From Escherichia phage vB_EcoM_Skers, in the sequence record MW748999.1: 64,000 bases of DNA; one strand, 5' to 3'. A model generated the notes under the pieces. It saw nothing but the letters and a program-made list of their open reading frames with translations, searched no databases and had not been told where the DNA came from. Numbering within the stretch: the stretch's first letter is position 1; each line of letters opens with the position of its first letter. Both the position numbers and the translations under genes were made by a program. Shown one piece after another: positions 11,165 to 32,497 of the stretch.

Positions 11165-11193
11165 ATTATGATATACACCCTCTGTTATGTCAA
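11165..11193 (-). promoter_or_regulatory. PeSL-type early promoter cassette
   Basis: Minus strand TTGACA-N17-CATAAT; palindrome GGGTGTAT/ATACACCC spans the -10; followed by SD and ATG. Confidence 0.7.
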
Positions 11194-11411: not shown

Positions 11412-11440
11412 ATTATAGGGGATCGATGATCCCCTGTCAA
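11412..11440 (-). promoter_or_regulatory. PeSL-type early promoter cassette
   Basis: TTGACA-N17-TATAAT with 17-nt palindromic spacer GGGGATCatcGATCCCC. Confidence 0.75.
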
Positions 11441-26089: not shown

Positions 26090-26308
26090 CTACTTTTTAA
26101 TGACAAGTTCGAATTTTGCTACCTTGCGTCCTCGTTTATTGAAAGCAACCCACGGACGGTTTTCAATGTAGAACAATTCTTCACCAATAATGAATACTGG
26201 CTGATTGTAAAGGCGACCCATCAGGTCACGCTGGCGAATGGTAGTAGATTCGTATACTTCTCCTACTACAAAGTGTTTGCTGATAGAGTCGGTGCAAGTA
26301 AATTTCAT
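26090..26308 (-). CDS. Hypothetical protein (72 aa)
   Basis: ORF with SD after PeSL. Confidence 0.55.
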   Translation of the reverse strand: MKFTCTDSISKHFVVGEVYESTTIRQRDLMGRLYNQPVFIIGEELFYIENRPWVAFNKRGRKVAKFELVIKK

Positions 26309-26696: not shown

Positions 26697-27173
26697 TTAA
26701 TCATGACCGTGATTTGCAATATCCGCTCGCGTCTTATCTTTGTGATTTCCTACGTCAAAGACACGATAACCATTTTCACGCAAAACTTTAATCACTTCTG
26801 GGTTATCCTCAAAGACTCCGACAACTTCATCTTTATCAAAGGATTTAATTACCTCTAATTTGATGTGATAATCTTTACGGGAATCGGTACGGCCTCTCAT
26901 AAAGATTTTATCAAAACACACCCCGTTAGAAATTAACCAATCAATTGTTTCCATGTAAGCATGTGAACTTCGTCCGGTGAGGATGTAAATCAAATGCCCG
27001 TTGTCGGAAAGAGCATTAATAACACGAATTACATCGTAAATGGGGGAATCTCCCCCACATGCCTTGTTATATTCGATCCATGACTCGACTTTATCAAGAT
27101 TTTCGGTTGGCATCTTTGCTAGTCGATGTGTTGGATCTGTGATCGTAAAATCTAAATCGACAAAATATATCAT
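26697..27173 (-). CDS. HAD-superfamily phosphatase (putative nucleotidase)
   Basis: N-terminal DxDxT motif (VDLDFTIT); ATGA overlap with nrdB. Confidence 0.65.
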   Translation of the reverse strand: MIYFVDLDFTITDPTHRLAKMPTENLDKVESWIEYNKACGGDSPIYDVIRVINALSDNGHLIYILTGRSSHAYMETIDWLISNGVCFDKIFMRGRTDSRKDYHIKLEVIKSFDKDEVVGVFEDNPEVIKVLRENGYRVFDVGNHKDKTRADIANHGHD

Positions 27174-28357
27174 AGATATTTACCGAATCGGTTGTAGTCA
27201 TCGTCTGTTAAATCGGTATTAACCTGAGACACCAGATACATAATCTCTACTTCTTGCGCCGCGTTTTGAACTTCGTCAGAGTTTAACCACTTACGCATCC
27301 ACGGTAACGGATGACGACGAACACTAAACGGGCTTTTCAGTCCGACAGCACGCATACGGGAATCTGCCAGGTATTCTACATAGGTTTTCAGAATTTCCGG
27401 TGACAGGTTAGGAATTGCCCCCATTGCGAATAGGTGGTCTACCCATTCTTTTTCTTGCTCGACAACATCCAGAAAGATTTTCGTTGCTTCGCCTTCAAGT
27501 TCTTCCGCAATCTGTTTCCACTCATCACCATCACCCCCCGTTTGCCATTGACGAATAATGTATTGTGTGCCTTTTAAATGAAGTTGTTCATCACGCGCAA
27601 TAAATTTCATGATCTTCGCGTTACCTTCCAGTAAACCACGTTCGGCAAAGCTGAAAGTACATGCAAAGGACACATAAAAACGGATTGCTTCCAGTGCATT
27701 GACGCAGTGTGCACACAGATAAATCGAAGCCATCAGATCTCGTTTTGTATCTTCAAAAAATCTTCTTGCATCATCTAATTCTGTCTGATCGTCTCGTTCT
27801 TCCCAATAGTGGTGGAGAACTTCTTCTTCCCAATAGCGGAGATCTTCTTTTGCATTCTCATACTTACGAATCCAATAAAGAACATCATCATAATATTTCC
27901 CGATAGATTCCGCTCGCTTCATGATAGCAGGGTTATCGATGATCTGGTCGAACTCACTAGCCGGATCAATGAAACAGTTACGCATAATGTGTGTATAGCT
28001 TCGGCTATGAATCGTTTCGCTGAATGTCCATGTTTGCAACCATGTATCGAGAGTTGGATCAGATACAATTGGACCAAATGCTGCGGACGGTGCGCGACCT
28101 TGAATAGAATCAAGTAATGTCTGATACTTCAAGTTTTCGGTAAAGAAACGCTTTTCAACGTCACCCATATTAAGATATTGTATGCGGTCGGTTGCAAGTG
28201 AAATCTCTTCGGGACGCCAGAAAAATGACAATTGCTTTTCGATCAGTTCTTCAAATACTTGATGACGCTGAATATCATAGCGAGCGATACCCAACCCACT
28301 ACCCAGAAACATCGGTTCGTTCATAATATCAACATGTTCGCGGTTAAATACGCTCAT
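27170..28357 (-). CDS. nrdB: Ribonucleotide reductase small subunit (class Ia beta)
   Basis: 395 aa; ferritin-like R2 sequence (FACTFSFAERG, EQLHL); uninterrupted. Confidence 0.9.
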   Translation of the reverse strand: MSVFNREHVDIMNEPMFLGSGLGIARYDIQRHQVFEELIEKQLSFFWRPEEISLATDRIQYLNMGDVEKRFFTENLKYQTLLDSIQGRAPSAAFGPIVSDPTLDTWLQTWTFSETIHSRSYTHIMRNCFIDPASEFDQIIDNPAIMKRAESIGKYYDDVLYWIRKYENAKEDLRYWEEEVLHHYWEERDDQTELDDARRFFEDTKRDLMASIYLCAHCVNALEAIRFYVSFACTFSFAERGLLEGNAKIMKFIARDEQLHLKGTQYIIRQWQTGGDGDEWKQIAEELEGEATKIFLDVVEQEKEWVDHLFAMGAIPNLSPEILKTYVEYLADSRMRAVGLKSPFSVRRHPLPWMRKWLNSDEVQNAAQEVEIMYLVSQVNTDLTDDDYNRFGKYL

Positions 28358-28372
28358 TAATTCACCTCACTA

Positions 28373-28540
28373 TCACTTTTTAACACAAAAGAACTTAGTA
28401 TTTCTGTTTATTTCGTTATCCTGTTGCAATTCCTGCACGGCTTCAAAACAGCTTTGATGTGATGAAAACTCCACGCTGGTAACAGTTCCTTTATTATATG
28501 ATCCTACGCTAACGGAAAGCAATAACCATAATGTAGCCAT
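28373..28540 (-). CDS. Hypothetical small protein (55 aa), hydrophobic N-terminus; not in ORF track
   Basis: MATLWLLLSVS...; start overlaps upstream stop as TAATG. Confidence 0.45.
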   Translation of the reverse strand: MATLWLLLSVSVGSYNKGTVTSVEFSSHQSCFEAVQELQQDNEINRNTKFFCVKK

Positions 28541-28713
28541 TAGTTCACCTTTTGTTTTTCAACGCAATATAGATTCATAAAGCGTTTATTGTCTTCACGG
28601 ATAATCTCGCGAGCTTTAACGCAATCCTGCTTTGTTGCAAACTCAATGCTTGACATATTTCCGTAATTATACATTGAATTGCTTATTGCAATCAATAACC
28701 ATACAGTAGCCAT
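28540..28713 (-). CDS. Hypothetical small protein (57 aa), paralog of 28373..28540; not in ORF track
   Basis: MATVWLLIAIS...CVEK; TAATG coupling on both sides. Confidence 0.45.
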   Translation of the reverse strand: MATVWLLIAISNSMYNYGNMSSIEFATKQDCVKAREIIREDNKRFMNLYCVEKQKVN

Positions 28714-28880
28714 TATCCTACAACCTCAAAACATTTATCATCGGGAAGAATAGCCCATTCTACGCCGTATTCATCCTCAACGTAGTAGCAAGTCCCATCA
28801 TATCGAGCCTCATATACATCACCGACAACAAAGCTATCAGCTAGCTCAAAATCTACAGCAACACATTTTAATTTGGTCAT
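28713..28880 (-). CDS. Hypothetical small protein (55 aa)
   Basis: Start trimmed to ATG 28880 (SD GAGGA) downstream of PeSL promoter. Confidence 0.5.
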   Translation of the reverse strand: MTKLKCVAVDFELADSFVVGDVYEARYDGTCYYVEDEYGVEWAILPDDKCFEVVG

Positions 28881-28911
28881 AATAAAATCCTCACTTGTTT
28901 TTGATGGTTGT

Positions 28912-28940
28912 ATTATAGCGGGGATTTCTCCCCGCGTCAA
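28912..28940 (-). promoter_or_regulatory. PeSL-type early promoter cassette
   Basis: TTGACG-N17-TATAAT; spacer palindrome CGGGGAgaaaTCCCCG. Confidence 0.75.
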
Positions 28941-28948
28941 CACTTATT

Positions 28949-31192
28949 TTACAGCTTGCAAGATGAGCACTCGCTAGCGTCTTCCGTACCATCTGCACCG
29001 TCGCGAACGTTCGCATAATACAGGGTTTTCAGACCGTAATGTTGAGCGAACAACATATCATCTAACACATCAGCAATATCGACTTTACCAGTCTTATAAG
29101 TGCTTGGATCATAGGATGTATTGGAACTAATCGCCTGATCTACAAACTTCTGCATGATCGCTGCCAGTGTCAGATAGGGCTTGTTACCTTTCTTGATCAG
29201 TGTCCAAAGCAGGTCAATAACATCAGCATTATTCTCTACGTTCGGAATAACCTGATTAAATTGCCCTTCTTTCGATCCTTTAACCGATACAATCCCGCGA
29301 GGCGGTTCAATACCGTTTGTGCTGTTAGATACCTGAGAAGACGACTCACAAGGCATCAGAGCCGAAAGCGTACTATTACGAATGCCATATTTTTTCAGGT
29401 CTTCGCGCAGTTCTTCCCAATCCATCTCATACACAGGATCAACCAGTTCATCTACTGTCTTTTTGTACCAGTCGATAGGCAGTTCACCGCGTCCATAACG
29501 TGTTTCGTGCATCAGTTCGCAAGCACCCTTCTCTTTAGCCAGTTGCACACTAGCCTTAATCAGAGCATATTGCAAGCGTTCAAACGTTTTATGCGTAAAC
29601 TCGTTAGCGTCTTCATATGTGAAGAAATTATCCGCTAGATATGACGCAAAGTTAGTAACACCAACACCCAGAGAGCGACGTTTTTTGGCTGTCAGAGCTT
29701 GTTCTACAGGATAATCCTGATAATCTAACAGGTTGTCAAGTGCACGCACCATAACCATAGCAATGCGTTCTACTTCTTCCATGTTTTCGATATCGAAATT
29801 ACCTAAAACATATGCTGCCAAAGTACATAGGCTGATCTCTGAATCATCACGCCCCATCGGTTTAGTAGGCAGAGCAATTTCACAACACAGGTTAGATTGT
29901 TTAATTGGTGCTACATTACGAATAAACGCCCCGTGATTGTTCATGTTGTCTGTGAATGTTGGGTAGATTCGACCAGTGTTAAAACGTTCAATTGCCACCG
30001 CTAAAAACAGGTCTTCGGCTTTAACACGAGTTTTACGAACACTCGGATCTTTTTCCAGTTTTTCGTAAAGCTGGCGGAAACCTTCCTCATCTCGGAAGTA
30101 CAGATCCCACAACAAGCCACCTGCAACATCTGGACTAAACAGAGTAATGTAATCCCGTTTAAGGAATCGCTCTACCATCAGGTTATTAATCTGTACGCCG
30201 TAGTCAAGATGGCGAATGCGGTTATCTTCCACGCCCTTATTGTTCTTTAACACAATCAGACTTTCAAACTCTAAATGCCACATTGGGTAATAGAGAGTCG
30301 CCGCCCCGCCACGAATACCGCCTTGTGAGCATGACTTAACGGCAGTCTGAAAATGTTTCCAGAATGGGATAACGCCAGTATGACGAACTTCACCATGCCC
30401 GATCTTAGATCCTTCCGCGCGAATCATGCCAGCGTTGATACCGATACCAGCACGCTTGCTAATATACTTGATGATTGCATTTGCTGTTTCGTTGATGCCC
30501 TGCAATGAGTCATCACTTTCAATCACCACACACGAACTAAATTGTCGTGTTGGAGTACGCACACCCGCCATAATCGGAGTAGGCAGAGAGATTTGCTTAT
30601 TCGCAACAGCATTATAAAAATCAATCACATGTTCAAGTCGATTTTCTGTCTCTTCTTGATGCAAACACATACCAATCAGCATATACGCAAATTGCGGTGT
30701 TTCGATGATTTTCTTAGTGCTGCGATCCTGAACAAGATATTTCTCTTTTAACTGCATCGCACCAGCATAGGTCATTTTAAAATCAAGTTTATGGTCGATG
30801 AATTTCTCCAGATATTCCACTTCTTCACGGGAATATTTTTGCAGAATTTCGCGATCATATTTTCCGGTTGCAATATTACGCTCAATATGGCTATAAAAAT
30901 CAATAGGTTGGAATTGACCGTATACTGATTTACGAAGCGCGAACATTGCAAGGTTACTTGCTACATATTGATAATCAGGCGTTTCTACAGTAATGTTATC
31001 TGCGGCGACCTTAATCAATACTTTCTGGATATCATTGGTAGACATACCTTCTGTCAGAAGTGGTTCAACCATATCAAACAATTCATATGGATCAACGTTA
31101 TGACCTTCGGCTGCCGCTTCCAGAATTTTCATTACTTTTTCTTTTTCAAACGGAACAGTCAGACCGGAAGACTTAACAACATTTTTAATCAT
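28949..31192 (-). CDS. nrdA: Ribonucleotide reductase large subunit (class Ia alpha)
   Basis: 747 aa; ATP-cone N-terminus; C-terminal CSSCKL redox pair. Confidence 0.9.
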   Translation of the reverse strand: MIKNVVKSSGLTVPFEKEKVMKILEAAAEGHNVDPYELFDMVEPLLTEGMSTNDIQKVLIKVAADNITVETPDYQYVASNLAMFALRKSVYGQFQPIDFYSHIERNIATGKYDREILQKYSREEVEYLEKFIDHKLDFKMTYAGAMQLKEKYLVQDRSTKKIIETPQFAYMLIGMCLHQEETENRLEHVIDFYNAVANKQISLPTPIMAGVRTPTRQFSSCVVIESDDSLQGINETANAIIKYISKRAGIGINAGMIRAEGSKIGHGEVRHTGVIPFWKHFQTAVKSCSQGGIRGGAATLYYPMWHLEFESLIVLKNNKGVEDNRIRHLDYGVQINNLMVERFLKRDYITLFSPDVAGGLLWDLYFRDEEGFRQLYEKLEKDPSVRKTRVKAEDLFLAVAIERFNTGRIYPTFTDNMNNHGAFIRNVAPIKQSNLCCEIALPTKPMGRDDSEISLCTLAAYVLGNFDIENMEEVERIAMVMVRALDNLLDYQDYPVEQALTAKKRRSLGVGVTNFASYLADNFFTYEDANEFTHKTFERLQYALIKASVQLAKEKGACELMHETRYGRGELPIDWYKKTVDELVDPVYEMDWEELREDLKKYGIRNSTLSALMPCESSSQVSNSTNGIEPPRGIVSVKGSKEGQFNQVIPNVENNADVIDLLWTLIKKGNKPYLTLAAIMQKFVDQAISSNTSYDPSTYKTGKVDIADVLDDMLFAQHYGLKTLYYANVRDGADGTEDASECSSCKL

Positions 31193-31261
31193 ATTACCTC
31201 ACTTCATATTTTAGCAGGAACAAGTTTATCCTCCATATTGGGGGCTTTCGCCCCCTTTTGT

Positions 31262-32497
31262 TTATACTGCCATTTGAGCGGTGATTGCTGGATGGCTTTG
31301 ATAGTTGTGAATTTTAAAGTCTTTCGGAGTCTTTGTCAATACCTCATCTAAAGACTTAAATTCCGGCAACTCAATTGTTGGTTTATCAAACGGAACACGG
31401 CTTAACTGTTCCATAACTTGATCAAAATGGTTTTTGTAAATGTGGCAATCCCCACACTGATAAACCAGTTCGCCAACTTCTAACCCGCAAATCTTCGCGA
31501 TGATATGCGTTAACAGTGCATAGCTCGCTACGTTGAACGGATTCCCTAAAAAGAGATCATTCGAACGCATGAAAAATAAACAACTCAATTTGTTGTCGTT
31601 GGAAACATAAAACTGTACCATCGGATGACATACACCTAACACAGCATTATGCGTTTCCTGTACGTTCCATGAATCAATGATAATACGACGACTATACGGA
31701 TCATTCTTGATCATGTCAATAACTTTTTGTAACTGGTCTTCCCAAATCTTCGGGCGATAGACATATTCTTCATCGTCTTTAGTGCTTGATGTGTCTACGT
31801 CCATACTAGCAAAGATCGTGGTATCTGGTGCTAAAATATCCCCACCCAGATAATCACTATCAAGCAGATAACCGAAATAACCATCATCTACCCATTCCTG
31901 GAATCCCCACAAGCAATATGCATCATTAACAAAATTAGATTGAGTCTTCCAGTGATCGGCTACTAAGAATTGATTATATTCAGAATCAAACTCTTCATAA
32001 CGCATACCACGCCAGATAGCACATAAACGGTCTTCTGTTTCATTGGTTGGCGTAAAGTCTTCTACCCACGGGTGCTTAAATGTATGTGCATATTTGCTCT
32101 TAACTCGCTTAATTTTGATTTCACCGTGTGGATGAATCGGTTTGCGTCGCCACGCCATACCATACATATTGCCGACATTATAACCATTGAATCGCAAGGG
32201 ATTCTTTTCTTTCATATCAAGACAGTTGCCGCGCCAAATATCAAAGGCTTCCTCGTCAAACTTGCCGCGTGTAATTTCCTGTAAGCGACGGCGGTCAAGT
32301 GATCCCTCCATAAACCATAGCAATTCGCCAATTACAGAGGCTGTAGCCATCTTTTTAGTGGTCAGTAAGGGGAAACCCTTGCTTAAATCAATTCGCATCT
32401 CTGCGCCGAATTTAGAGAGCGTACCTACCCCCGTTCGGTCGTCACGAGGCCAACCATTATCAAGAACATCACGCAATAGTTTCAAATATTCTTTCAT
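31262..32497 (-). CDS. td: Thymidylate synthase with about 115-aa in-frame insertion
   Basis: RDDRTGVGT, catalytic CHPMVQFYV, LGNPFNVASYALL (Asn, dUMP-type); 411 aa versus about 286 aa for T4 Td. Confidence 0.85.
   Translation of the reverse strand: MKEYLKLLRDVLDNGWPRDDRTGVGTLSKFGAEMRIDLSKGFPLLTTKKMATASVIGELLWFMEGSLDRRRLQEITRGKFDEEAFDIWRGNCLDMKEKNPLRFNGYNVGNMYGMAWRRKPIHPHGEIKIKRVKSKYAHTFKHPWVEDFTPTNETEDRLCAIWRGMRYEEFDSEYNQFLVADHWKTQSNFVNDAYCLWGFQEWVDDGYFGYLLDSDYLGGDILAPDTTIFASMDVDTSSTKDDEEYVYRPKIWEDQLQKVIDMIKNDPYSRRIIIDSWNVQETHNAVLGVCHPMVQFYVSNDNKLSCLFFMRSNDLFLGNPFNVASYALLTHIIAKICGLEVGELVYQCGDCHIYKNHFDQVMEQLSRVPFDKPTIELPEFKSLDEVLTKTPKDFKIHNYQSHPAITAQMAV

Follow-up and report, generated by a model that had tools for sequence, protein, structure and literature searches.

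In bacteriophage T4 the genes nrdA and nrdB are separated by mobE, which overlaps nrdA as UAAUGA and contains a terminator, and a middle promoter stands before nrdB (PMC2988022). In phages RB49 and phi1, Arbiol, Comeau, Kutateladze, Adamia and Krisch (2010) named a composite element, the promoter-early stem-loop (PeSL), of which copies 206/205 and 211/210, placed in lacZ reporters, acted as promoters at about 13,000 Miller units and terminated transcription to an extent comparable with rrnB T1 (PMC2839356); the consensus and an extension of the description were published later (PMC4122927). Here we analyze the nrdA-nrdB junction of Escherichia phage vB_EcoM_Skers within a stretch of 64,000 nucleotides (nt) of sequence record MW748999.1, referred to throughout as the window, where a promoter-plus-hairpin element is followed by three small open reading frames (ORFs), ORF1 to ORF3. 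What the junction holds is very probably an accessory-gene cassette of a kind ordinary for RB49-like phages, in a plastic part of the genome.

The region is 99.3% identical to that of Shigella phage Sf20 and 96-98% identical to those of RB49, Phi1, ECD7, and about 50 other Krischvirus genomes, and by this measure the window is that of a Krischvirus, i.e. an RB49-like T4-type phage. ORF1, ORF2, and ORF3 correspond to RB49p233, RB49p232, and RB49p231, labeled "hypothetical protein" in RB49 and likewise in Sf20, a label that they bear in more than 50 genomes. Deposited proteins identical to ORF1 and ORF3 come from vB_EcoM_Skers and others, and an identical ORF2 protein is present on 186 contigs. 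The genes are not new, being deposited already as RB49p231-233, and as the promoter type is also published the locus matters little for genome annotation. What is modestly new is the size of the ORF2/3 family with its two invariant cysteines, and the junction as a landing pad for homing endonucleases.

The promoter-hairpin element and the reading frames

The cassette is bordered upstream by nrdA, and all of its elements are on the minus strand. The features are as follows, lengths being in amino acids (aa).

31192..28949, minus strand: nrdA, large subunit of class Ia ribonucleotide reductase, 747 aa (ORF list; nrdA annotation in RB49, Sf20, and JSE)
28940..28912, minus strand: promoter, with -35 box TTGACG at 28940-28935, a 17-nt spacer, and -10 box TATAAT at 28917-28912 (promoter scan, 11/12 consensus)
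28935..28918, minus strand: stem-loop GCGGGGA-GAAA-TCCCCGC (RNA fold of -19 kcal/mol, z = -4.4 versus shuffles)
28880..28713, minus strand: ORF1, 55 aa, ATG start, orthologue of RB49p233 (GAGGA 7 nt before the ATG)
28713..28540, minus strand: ORF2, 57 aa, orthologue of RB49p232 (phrog_5579, E = 7e-24)
28540..28373, minus strand: ORF3, 55 aa, orthologue of RB49p231 (phrog_5579, E = 1e-24)
28357..27170, minus strand: nrdB, small subunit of ribonucleotide reductase, 395 aa (ORF list and annotations)
26697..27173, minus strand: HAD_PNKP-type phosphatase, 158 aa (Pfam HAD_PNKP, E = 3e-13; polynucleotide kinase/phosphatase in the annotations of relatives)

The gap between nrdA and nrdB is 591 nt long, and the three ORFs fill 86% of it. 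At both the ORF1/ORF2 and the ORF2/ORF3 junctions the sequence is TAATG, with one base common to stop and start; nrdB begins 15 nt past ORF3 behind its own GAGGTGA, and the phosphatase gene overlaps the nrdB stop by 4 nt. For ORF1 a mechanical ORF list gave a GTG start at 28943, which was rejected in favor of the ATG at 28880 because that codon lies inside the promoter. Overlaps of stop and start in this style are ordinary for this phage genome, as 4 one-base and 7 four-base overlaps occur on the minus strand among the 114 crude ORFs of the window.

All three ORFs look like real genes encoding proteins, on grounds of chance, selection, and homology together with their modeled folds. The alternative is that the ORFs are untranslated and the gap is a long regulatory leader of nrdB in which open frames are incidental, a reading to which the lack of any expression data for these ORFs, the broken ORF1 of four relatives, and the poorly spaced Shine-Dalgarno sequence of ORF2 could be taken to lend weight. 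Of 20,000 dinucleotide-preserving shuffles of the gap, 2 had a strand with three or more ATG ORFs that were 50 aa or longer (about 1e-4), and none reached the observed 86% coverage. The locus was also aligned across 13 relatives, and the ratio of nonsynonymous to synonymous substitution (dN/dS) was obtained with Nei-Gojobori statistics, variable sites being counted at the 1st/2nd/3rd codon positions.

ORF1: dN/dS 0.22, variable sites 8/4/13
ORF2: dN/dS 0.067, variable sites 3/2/10
ORF3: dN/dS 0.19, variable sites 9/5/21
nrdA 3' end (297 nt): dN/dS 0.015, variable sites 3/0/29
nrdB 5' end: dN/dS 0.069, variable sites 10/8/49

The concentration of substitutions at the third codon position, with dN/dS of 0.07-0.22 for the three ORFs, shows that ORF2 and ORF3 are clearly under in-frame purifying selection and that ORF1 is likewise constrained, though it is broken in 4 of the 13 relatives. 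Matches of the ORFs to PHROG families have E values of 9e-41 to 1e-24, homologues of ORF2/3 that keep the conserved residues are annotated genes of unrelated phages and their fold is modeled with confidence, and an Rfam scan of window positions 27000-31500 found no family match. Against this evidence the untranslated leader is extremely improbable. The preliminary description of this DNA, which had placed three small ORFs with TAATG overlaps between nrdA and nrdB, holds on both counts, and the reading frames prove to be conserved in the relatives and annotated in RB49 and Sf20.

The -35 box lies 8 nt downstream of the nrdA stop, the hairpin begins 13 nt past that stop and fills the promoter spacer, and the GAGGA and ATG of ORF1 follow about 25 nt past the -10 box; transcription would start near 28905. 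The promoter had been called perfect, and while TTGACG-N17-TATAAT is indeed present, at 11/12 it is better termed near-perfect. The element is nearly invariant in the 13 relatives, the sole change of the -10 box being TATACT in Makalu_003, and the annotators of two relatives each recorded half of it, a promoter at the PeSL site in GEC-3S and a terminator at the same position in Makalu_003. It aligns with five other PeSLs of the window at a mean column identity of 76%, and the minus strand of the window carries at least nine PeSL-type elements. In sequence and position alike the promoter-plus-hairpin between nrdA and ORF1 thus corresponds to a PeSL cassette, a copy of which we found no mention in the published PeSL descriptions (PMC2839356, PMC4122927).

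Among the other copies in the window, all on the minus strand, the hairpin lies in the spacer of those with -35 boxes at 11440, 13572, 17088, 18226, and 54305 and over the -10 box of those with -35 boxes at 11193, 15304, and 62936. The PeSLs of the window have in common an upstream A-rich tract and a downstream TACACACATACCGAAA or ACAACCATCAAGAC, and PeSL elements mark hyperplastic regions of the genome.

Between ORF1 and nrdB the promoter scan gave no promoter of 11/12 or better and no terminator-like site. Because the gap between ORF3 and nrdB is 15 nt and holds no terminator-like site, ORF1-3 are likely to be co-transcribed with nrdB. A promoter-like TTGATT-18-TATAAT (10/12) inside ORF2, at 28666-28695 on the minus strand, could give nrdB an internal start.

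The ORF2/ORF3 paralogues and their family

ORF2 and ORF3 share 40% identity over their full length (E = 1e-16) and both match phrog_5579 end to end over the whole profile, which supports their assignment as tandem paralogues, as had been proposed from their appearance. Their relatives occur in unrelated phages, including Tempevirinae (pSf-1, Motto, and PHB17), an Erwinia jumbo phage, and Vibrio phages. When 1.84 billion representative proteins were searched with a profile, at least 283 clusters, counted at 50% identity, were recovered at E ≤ 1e-3, nearly all of them stand-alone proteins of 45-65 aa. A further homologue search, made with the profile of 102 sequences, brought neither new names nor new domains, and a search for related loci with a single protein returned only two, nearly identical. 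The domain is widespread among unrelated phages, in regions of early and replication genes, and among the contexts looked at its tandem duplication is specific to Krischvirus. In an alignment of 102 diverse members, 95 match phrog_5579 and 35 also match phrog_3766; Cys-31 and Cys-52 are invariant, and Trp-5, Leu-7, and Phe-25 are at least 90% conserved, all five residues being carried by both ORF2 and ORF3. The conserved cysteine near the C terminus of the preliminary description is therefore present but is one of two, Cys-31 and Cys-50/52, which stand 19-21 residues apart.

Pfam searches with ORF2, ORF3, and the 102 family members found no family. Profile searches against PDB sequences found no related structure, the best match being a YegP/UPF0339-like motif with an E value of 0.55 that was taken as noise. 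The AlphaFold model, built on a 26-sequence alignment, has a predicted local distance difference test score (pLDDT) of 91.8 and a beta-beta-alpha-alpha-beta topology with beta1 at residues 5-11, beta2 at 20-25, a helix at 28-39, a short helix at 42-47, and beta3 at 48-54.

The hydrophobic N terminus that had been pointed out in ORF2 and ORF3 is real, 11-15 consecutive residues that bear no charge and are for the most part hydrophobic, and together with an invariant cysteine pair typical of an oxidized extracytoplasmic mini-domain it could suggest that these are membrane-anchored or exported micro-proteins with the cysteines in a periplasmic disulfide. However, the maximum 19-residue Kyte-Doolittle means of the two proteins are 0.61 and 0.81, far under the value of about 1.6 usual for a membrane helix. 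Nor is there a basic n-region, no Lys or Arg preceding the run and several family members having Asp or Glu there. In the model, residues 5-11 form a strand (pLDDT about 89) of the three-stranded sheet, the removal of which would destroy the domain. The run is thus predicted with high confidence to be a buried core beta-strand; it is not to be taken for a membrane anchor, and a membrane location for these proteins is very unlikely.

The position of the pair raises the question of whether ORF2 and ORF3 are dedicated accessories of NrdA/NrdB, acting through the invariant cysteines as a redox partner or as a factor in the maturation or assembly of NrdB, for which a place between nrdA and nrdB, with probable co-transcription with nrdB, would give stoichiometric co-expression. 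That the two cysteines are invariant across the family is in keeping with this, as is the occurrence of family members near genes of nucleotide metabolism, which in PHB17 and Motto are those of a HAD_PNKP phosphatase and a dNMP kinase and in L020 is a DNMK-like gene. The ORF2/3 homologue of PHB17 and Motto directly follows the phosphatase gene with a 4-nt overlap (L021 2465-3156; L003 1971-2650), and the phosphatase of the window is 39% identical to that of these two phages (E = 8e-38). This adjacency was seen only in Tempevirinae and Krischvirus and not in six other contexts.

Presence of the family and presence of the reductase do not go together, however. A close copy of the ORF2/ORF3 pair is found in about 54 of 58 Krischvirus records, yet JSE keeps nrdA and nrdB with ORF2/3 absent; conversely, PHB17 has a family member and no NrdA or NrdB, either in its annotation or by tblastn (no hit at E ≤ 1). 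Of the other members, some are found between DnaB and PolA, some behind AAA_24 genes, and some in a region resembling the lambdoid nin region. The spacing of the cysteines leaves no CxxC motif, no thioredoxin, glutaredoxin, ferredoxin, or flavodoxin hit was obtained with Pfam for ORF2, ORF3, or the 102 relatives, and the fold differs as well. A dedicated role in ribonucleotide reduction is therefore quite unlikely, and the pair should not be regarded as an accessory of that enzyme.

A looser connection would be that this undescribed family, which lacks a Pfam entry, is a redox- or metal-dependent small regulator of an enzyme of nucleotide metabolism or replication and not a general protein of host takeover. 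The idea comes from the placement of family members in replication and nucleotide-metabolism modules and, in Krischvirus and Tempevirinae, within one gene of a homologous HAD_PNKP-type phosphatase; we consider it unlikely. The two-cysteine family is in any case large enough to merit a domain-family entry and a functional test.

ORF1 and the plasticity of the junction

ORF1 encodes an acidic protein, with 13 Asp and Glu to 4 Lys and Arg and a net charge of -9. The best AlphaFold model has a pLDDT of 88.8 and five strands, three of the five models being much lower, and on this model ORF1 is predicted to be an acidic, five-stranded SH3-like beta-barrel. The sole Pfam match, to DUF7244 (PF23896), is below threshold, scoring 18.4 bits where the curated gathering cutoff is 27 (E = 0.0023), and homologues were found only in Krischvirus. 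The four broken alleles among the 13 relatives comprise a GAG to TAG change at codon 12 in G37-3, a GAA to TAA change at codon 41 in JEP8, a +1 frameshift in kaaroe, and a -2 frameshift in FL37; GEC-3S has a 21-nt in-frame duplication, and truncated ORF1 products are present in the protein database. These alleles indicate that ORF1 is dispensable and is decaying in some lineages.

A 72-aa ORF at 26090-26308 on the minus strand, in the RB49p227 position, has an N-terminal motif like that of ORF1 (K-x-x-C ... FVVG[DE]VYE, 12 of 28 residues identical). Homology with ORF1 was rejected, a single 28-residue motif being too weak, although this ORF may encode another small SH3-like protein.

Downstream of ORF1 the junction differs among close relatives. 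JSE and AV108 have, immediately behind the ORF1 stop, TAGTGAGGTGAATTA, the nrdB leader that follows ORF3 in the window, so that ORF2-ORF3 is exactly absent, and in JSE a 215-aa NUMOD3-type homing endonuclease then follows in place of ORF2/3 (L007 2734-3463). The space from ORF3 to nrdB is occupied in G2494 and G37-3 by an HNH-AP2 endonuclease of 179 aa (L014 1884-2423; L008 1733-2450). A single ORF2/ORF3 chimera with an ORF2-like N terminus and an ORF3-like remainder occurs in G37-3 (L008 1733-1900) and in the metagenomic protein P0033, the product expected of unequal recombination between tandem paralogues.

The first 300 nt of nrdB are about 85% identical in G2494 and G37-3 and about 93% identical in JSE, a divergence beside the endonucleases that is consistent with co-conversion of flanking sequence. 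The nrdB gene of the window has a 27-nt in-frame insertion (YWEEEVLHH) at 27809-27835 on the minus strand, which is in part a repeat of the YWEE that comes next and which RB49 and Sf20 lack, giving 395 aa versus 386 aa; the nrdB product of G2494 is also 395 aa.

Farther upstream, td encodes a thymidylate synthase of 411 aa (31262-32497, minus strand; 410 aa in RB49), roughly 120 residues longer than a typical ThyA, for example that of T4, and apparently with a large internal acidic or aromatic insertion.

Expression, role, and comparison with described systems

In the scheme that we propose for the locus, the PeSL hairpin right after the nrdA stop would attenuate or terminate the td-nrdA transcripts, by analogy with the published tests on other PeSLs, and the near-consensus sigma-70 promoter around the hairpin would start a new early transcript. 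RB49 has neither MotA nor middle promoters (PMC1524935), and so early promoters of the PeSL kind must drive such genes. From the layout of the sequence, the transcript would carry ORF1, ORF2, ORF3, nrdB, and the HAD phosphatase gene, of which nrdB is probably the main cargo and the phosphatase gene is likely to be the last of the transcription unit. ORF1 would be translated from its own Shine-Dalgarno sequence. ORF2, with just 2 nt separating AGGA and ATG, is for that reason probably coupled to ORF1 and would be translated mainly by termination-reinitiation at UAAUG. ORF3, with its own AAGGTGA 4 nt before the start, would make use of both the overlap and its own Shine-Dalgarno sequence.

With the membrane anchor, the redox partner of ribonucleotide reductase, and the non-coding leader all considered and rejected on the evidence given for each, the accessory-gene cassette is the reading that we retain. 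The models suggest that the products of ORF1-3 are small, soluble, single-domain proteins, and their distribution and broken alleles suggest that they are most likely dispensable for the core cycle of the phage and for ribonucleotide reductase function. The role that seems most likely for them, though we offer it tentatively and as something less than an even chance, would be to bind or modulate, early in infection, some protein of the host or of the phage, whether for host takeover or for counter-defense.

Several points weigh against this account. The case for binders or modulators is made from size, early context, and dispensability only. The dN/dS of ORF2 and its identical occurrence across so many contigs speak for real selection, though JSE is without ORF2. 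The frameshifts of ORF1 in kaaroe and FL37 could be sequencing errors, which is less likely for the nonsense alleles. No U-tract follows the hairpin, and literature searches by locus tag, by accession, and for Krischvirus RNA-seq returned no transcript-end, ribosome-profiling, or peptide data for any Krischvirus.

Parts of the cassette can be set beside described systems. Gp54 of phage Bas11 (PDB 9axb; PMC11578894) is, like ORF1 as modeled, a small (55-66 aa), non-essential beta-barrel related to the SH3 fold. It has six strands versus the five of the ORF1 model, and no sequence similarity was detected, so that the resemblance is one of fold and lifestyle and not of family membership; the sole known property of Gp54, that it triggers CapRel-SJ46 (PMC11578894), is not transferable to ORF1. 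The counterparts of ORF2 and ORF3 are the families phrog_5579 and phrog_3766, small phage proteins with no assigned function, no Pfam model, and no solved structure.

In layout the locus is like the PeSL-ORFan cassettes of RB49 and phi1, where the element likewise fills the space from the stop of one gene to the Shine-Dalgarno sequence and ATG of a small ORF with no assigned function, occurs in many similar copies per genome, and has a neighborhood that varies among close relatives. Unlike those cassettes, the copy described here lies inside the conserved metabolic pair nrdA/nrdB and not in a hyperplastic region, and it must also feed the core gene nrdB. The indels differ too, being located downstream of ORF1 and involving homing endonucleases and recombination between paralogues, in contrast to the exchange between two PeSLs of the RB49 and phi1 cassettes.

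In position, the locus compares with the nrdA-mobE-nrdB junction of T4, which has non-core cargo at the same intergenic site, a UAAUG(A) overlap that suggests translational coupling, and an attenuating terminator followed by a fresh promoter for nrdB (PMC2988022); Krischvirus relatives, moreover, hold homing endonucleases in the same gap. The T4 cargo is an HNH homing endonuclease and its nrdB promoter is a MotA-dependent middle promoter (PMC2988022), whereas the cargo here is three tiny non-nuclease proteins and the promoter is an early sigma-70-type PeSL. In RB49-like phages the junction of nrdA and nrdB would behave as it does in T4, being a place where homing endonucleases and other dispensable cargo can land while a terminator-plus-promoter device keeps nrdB expressed.

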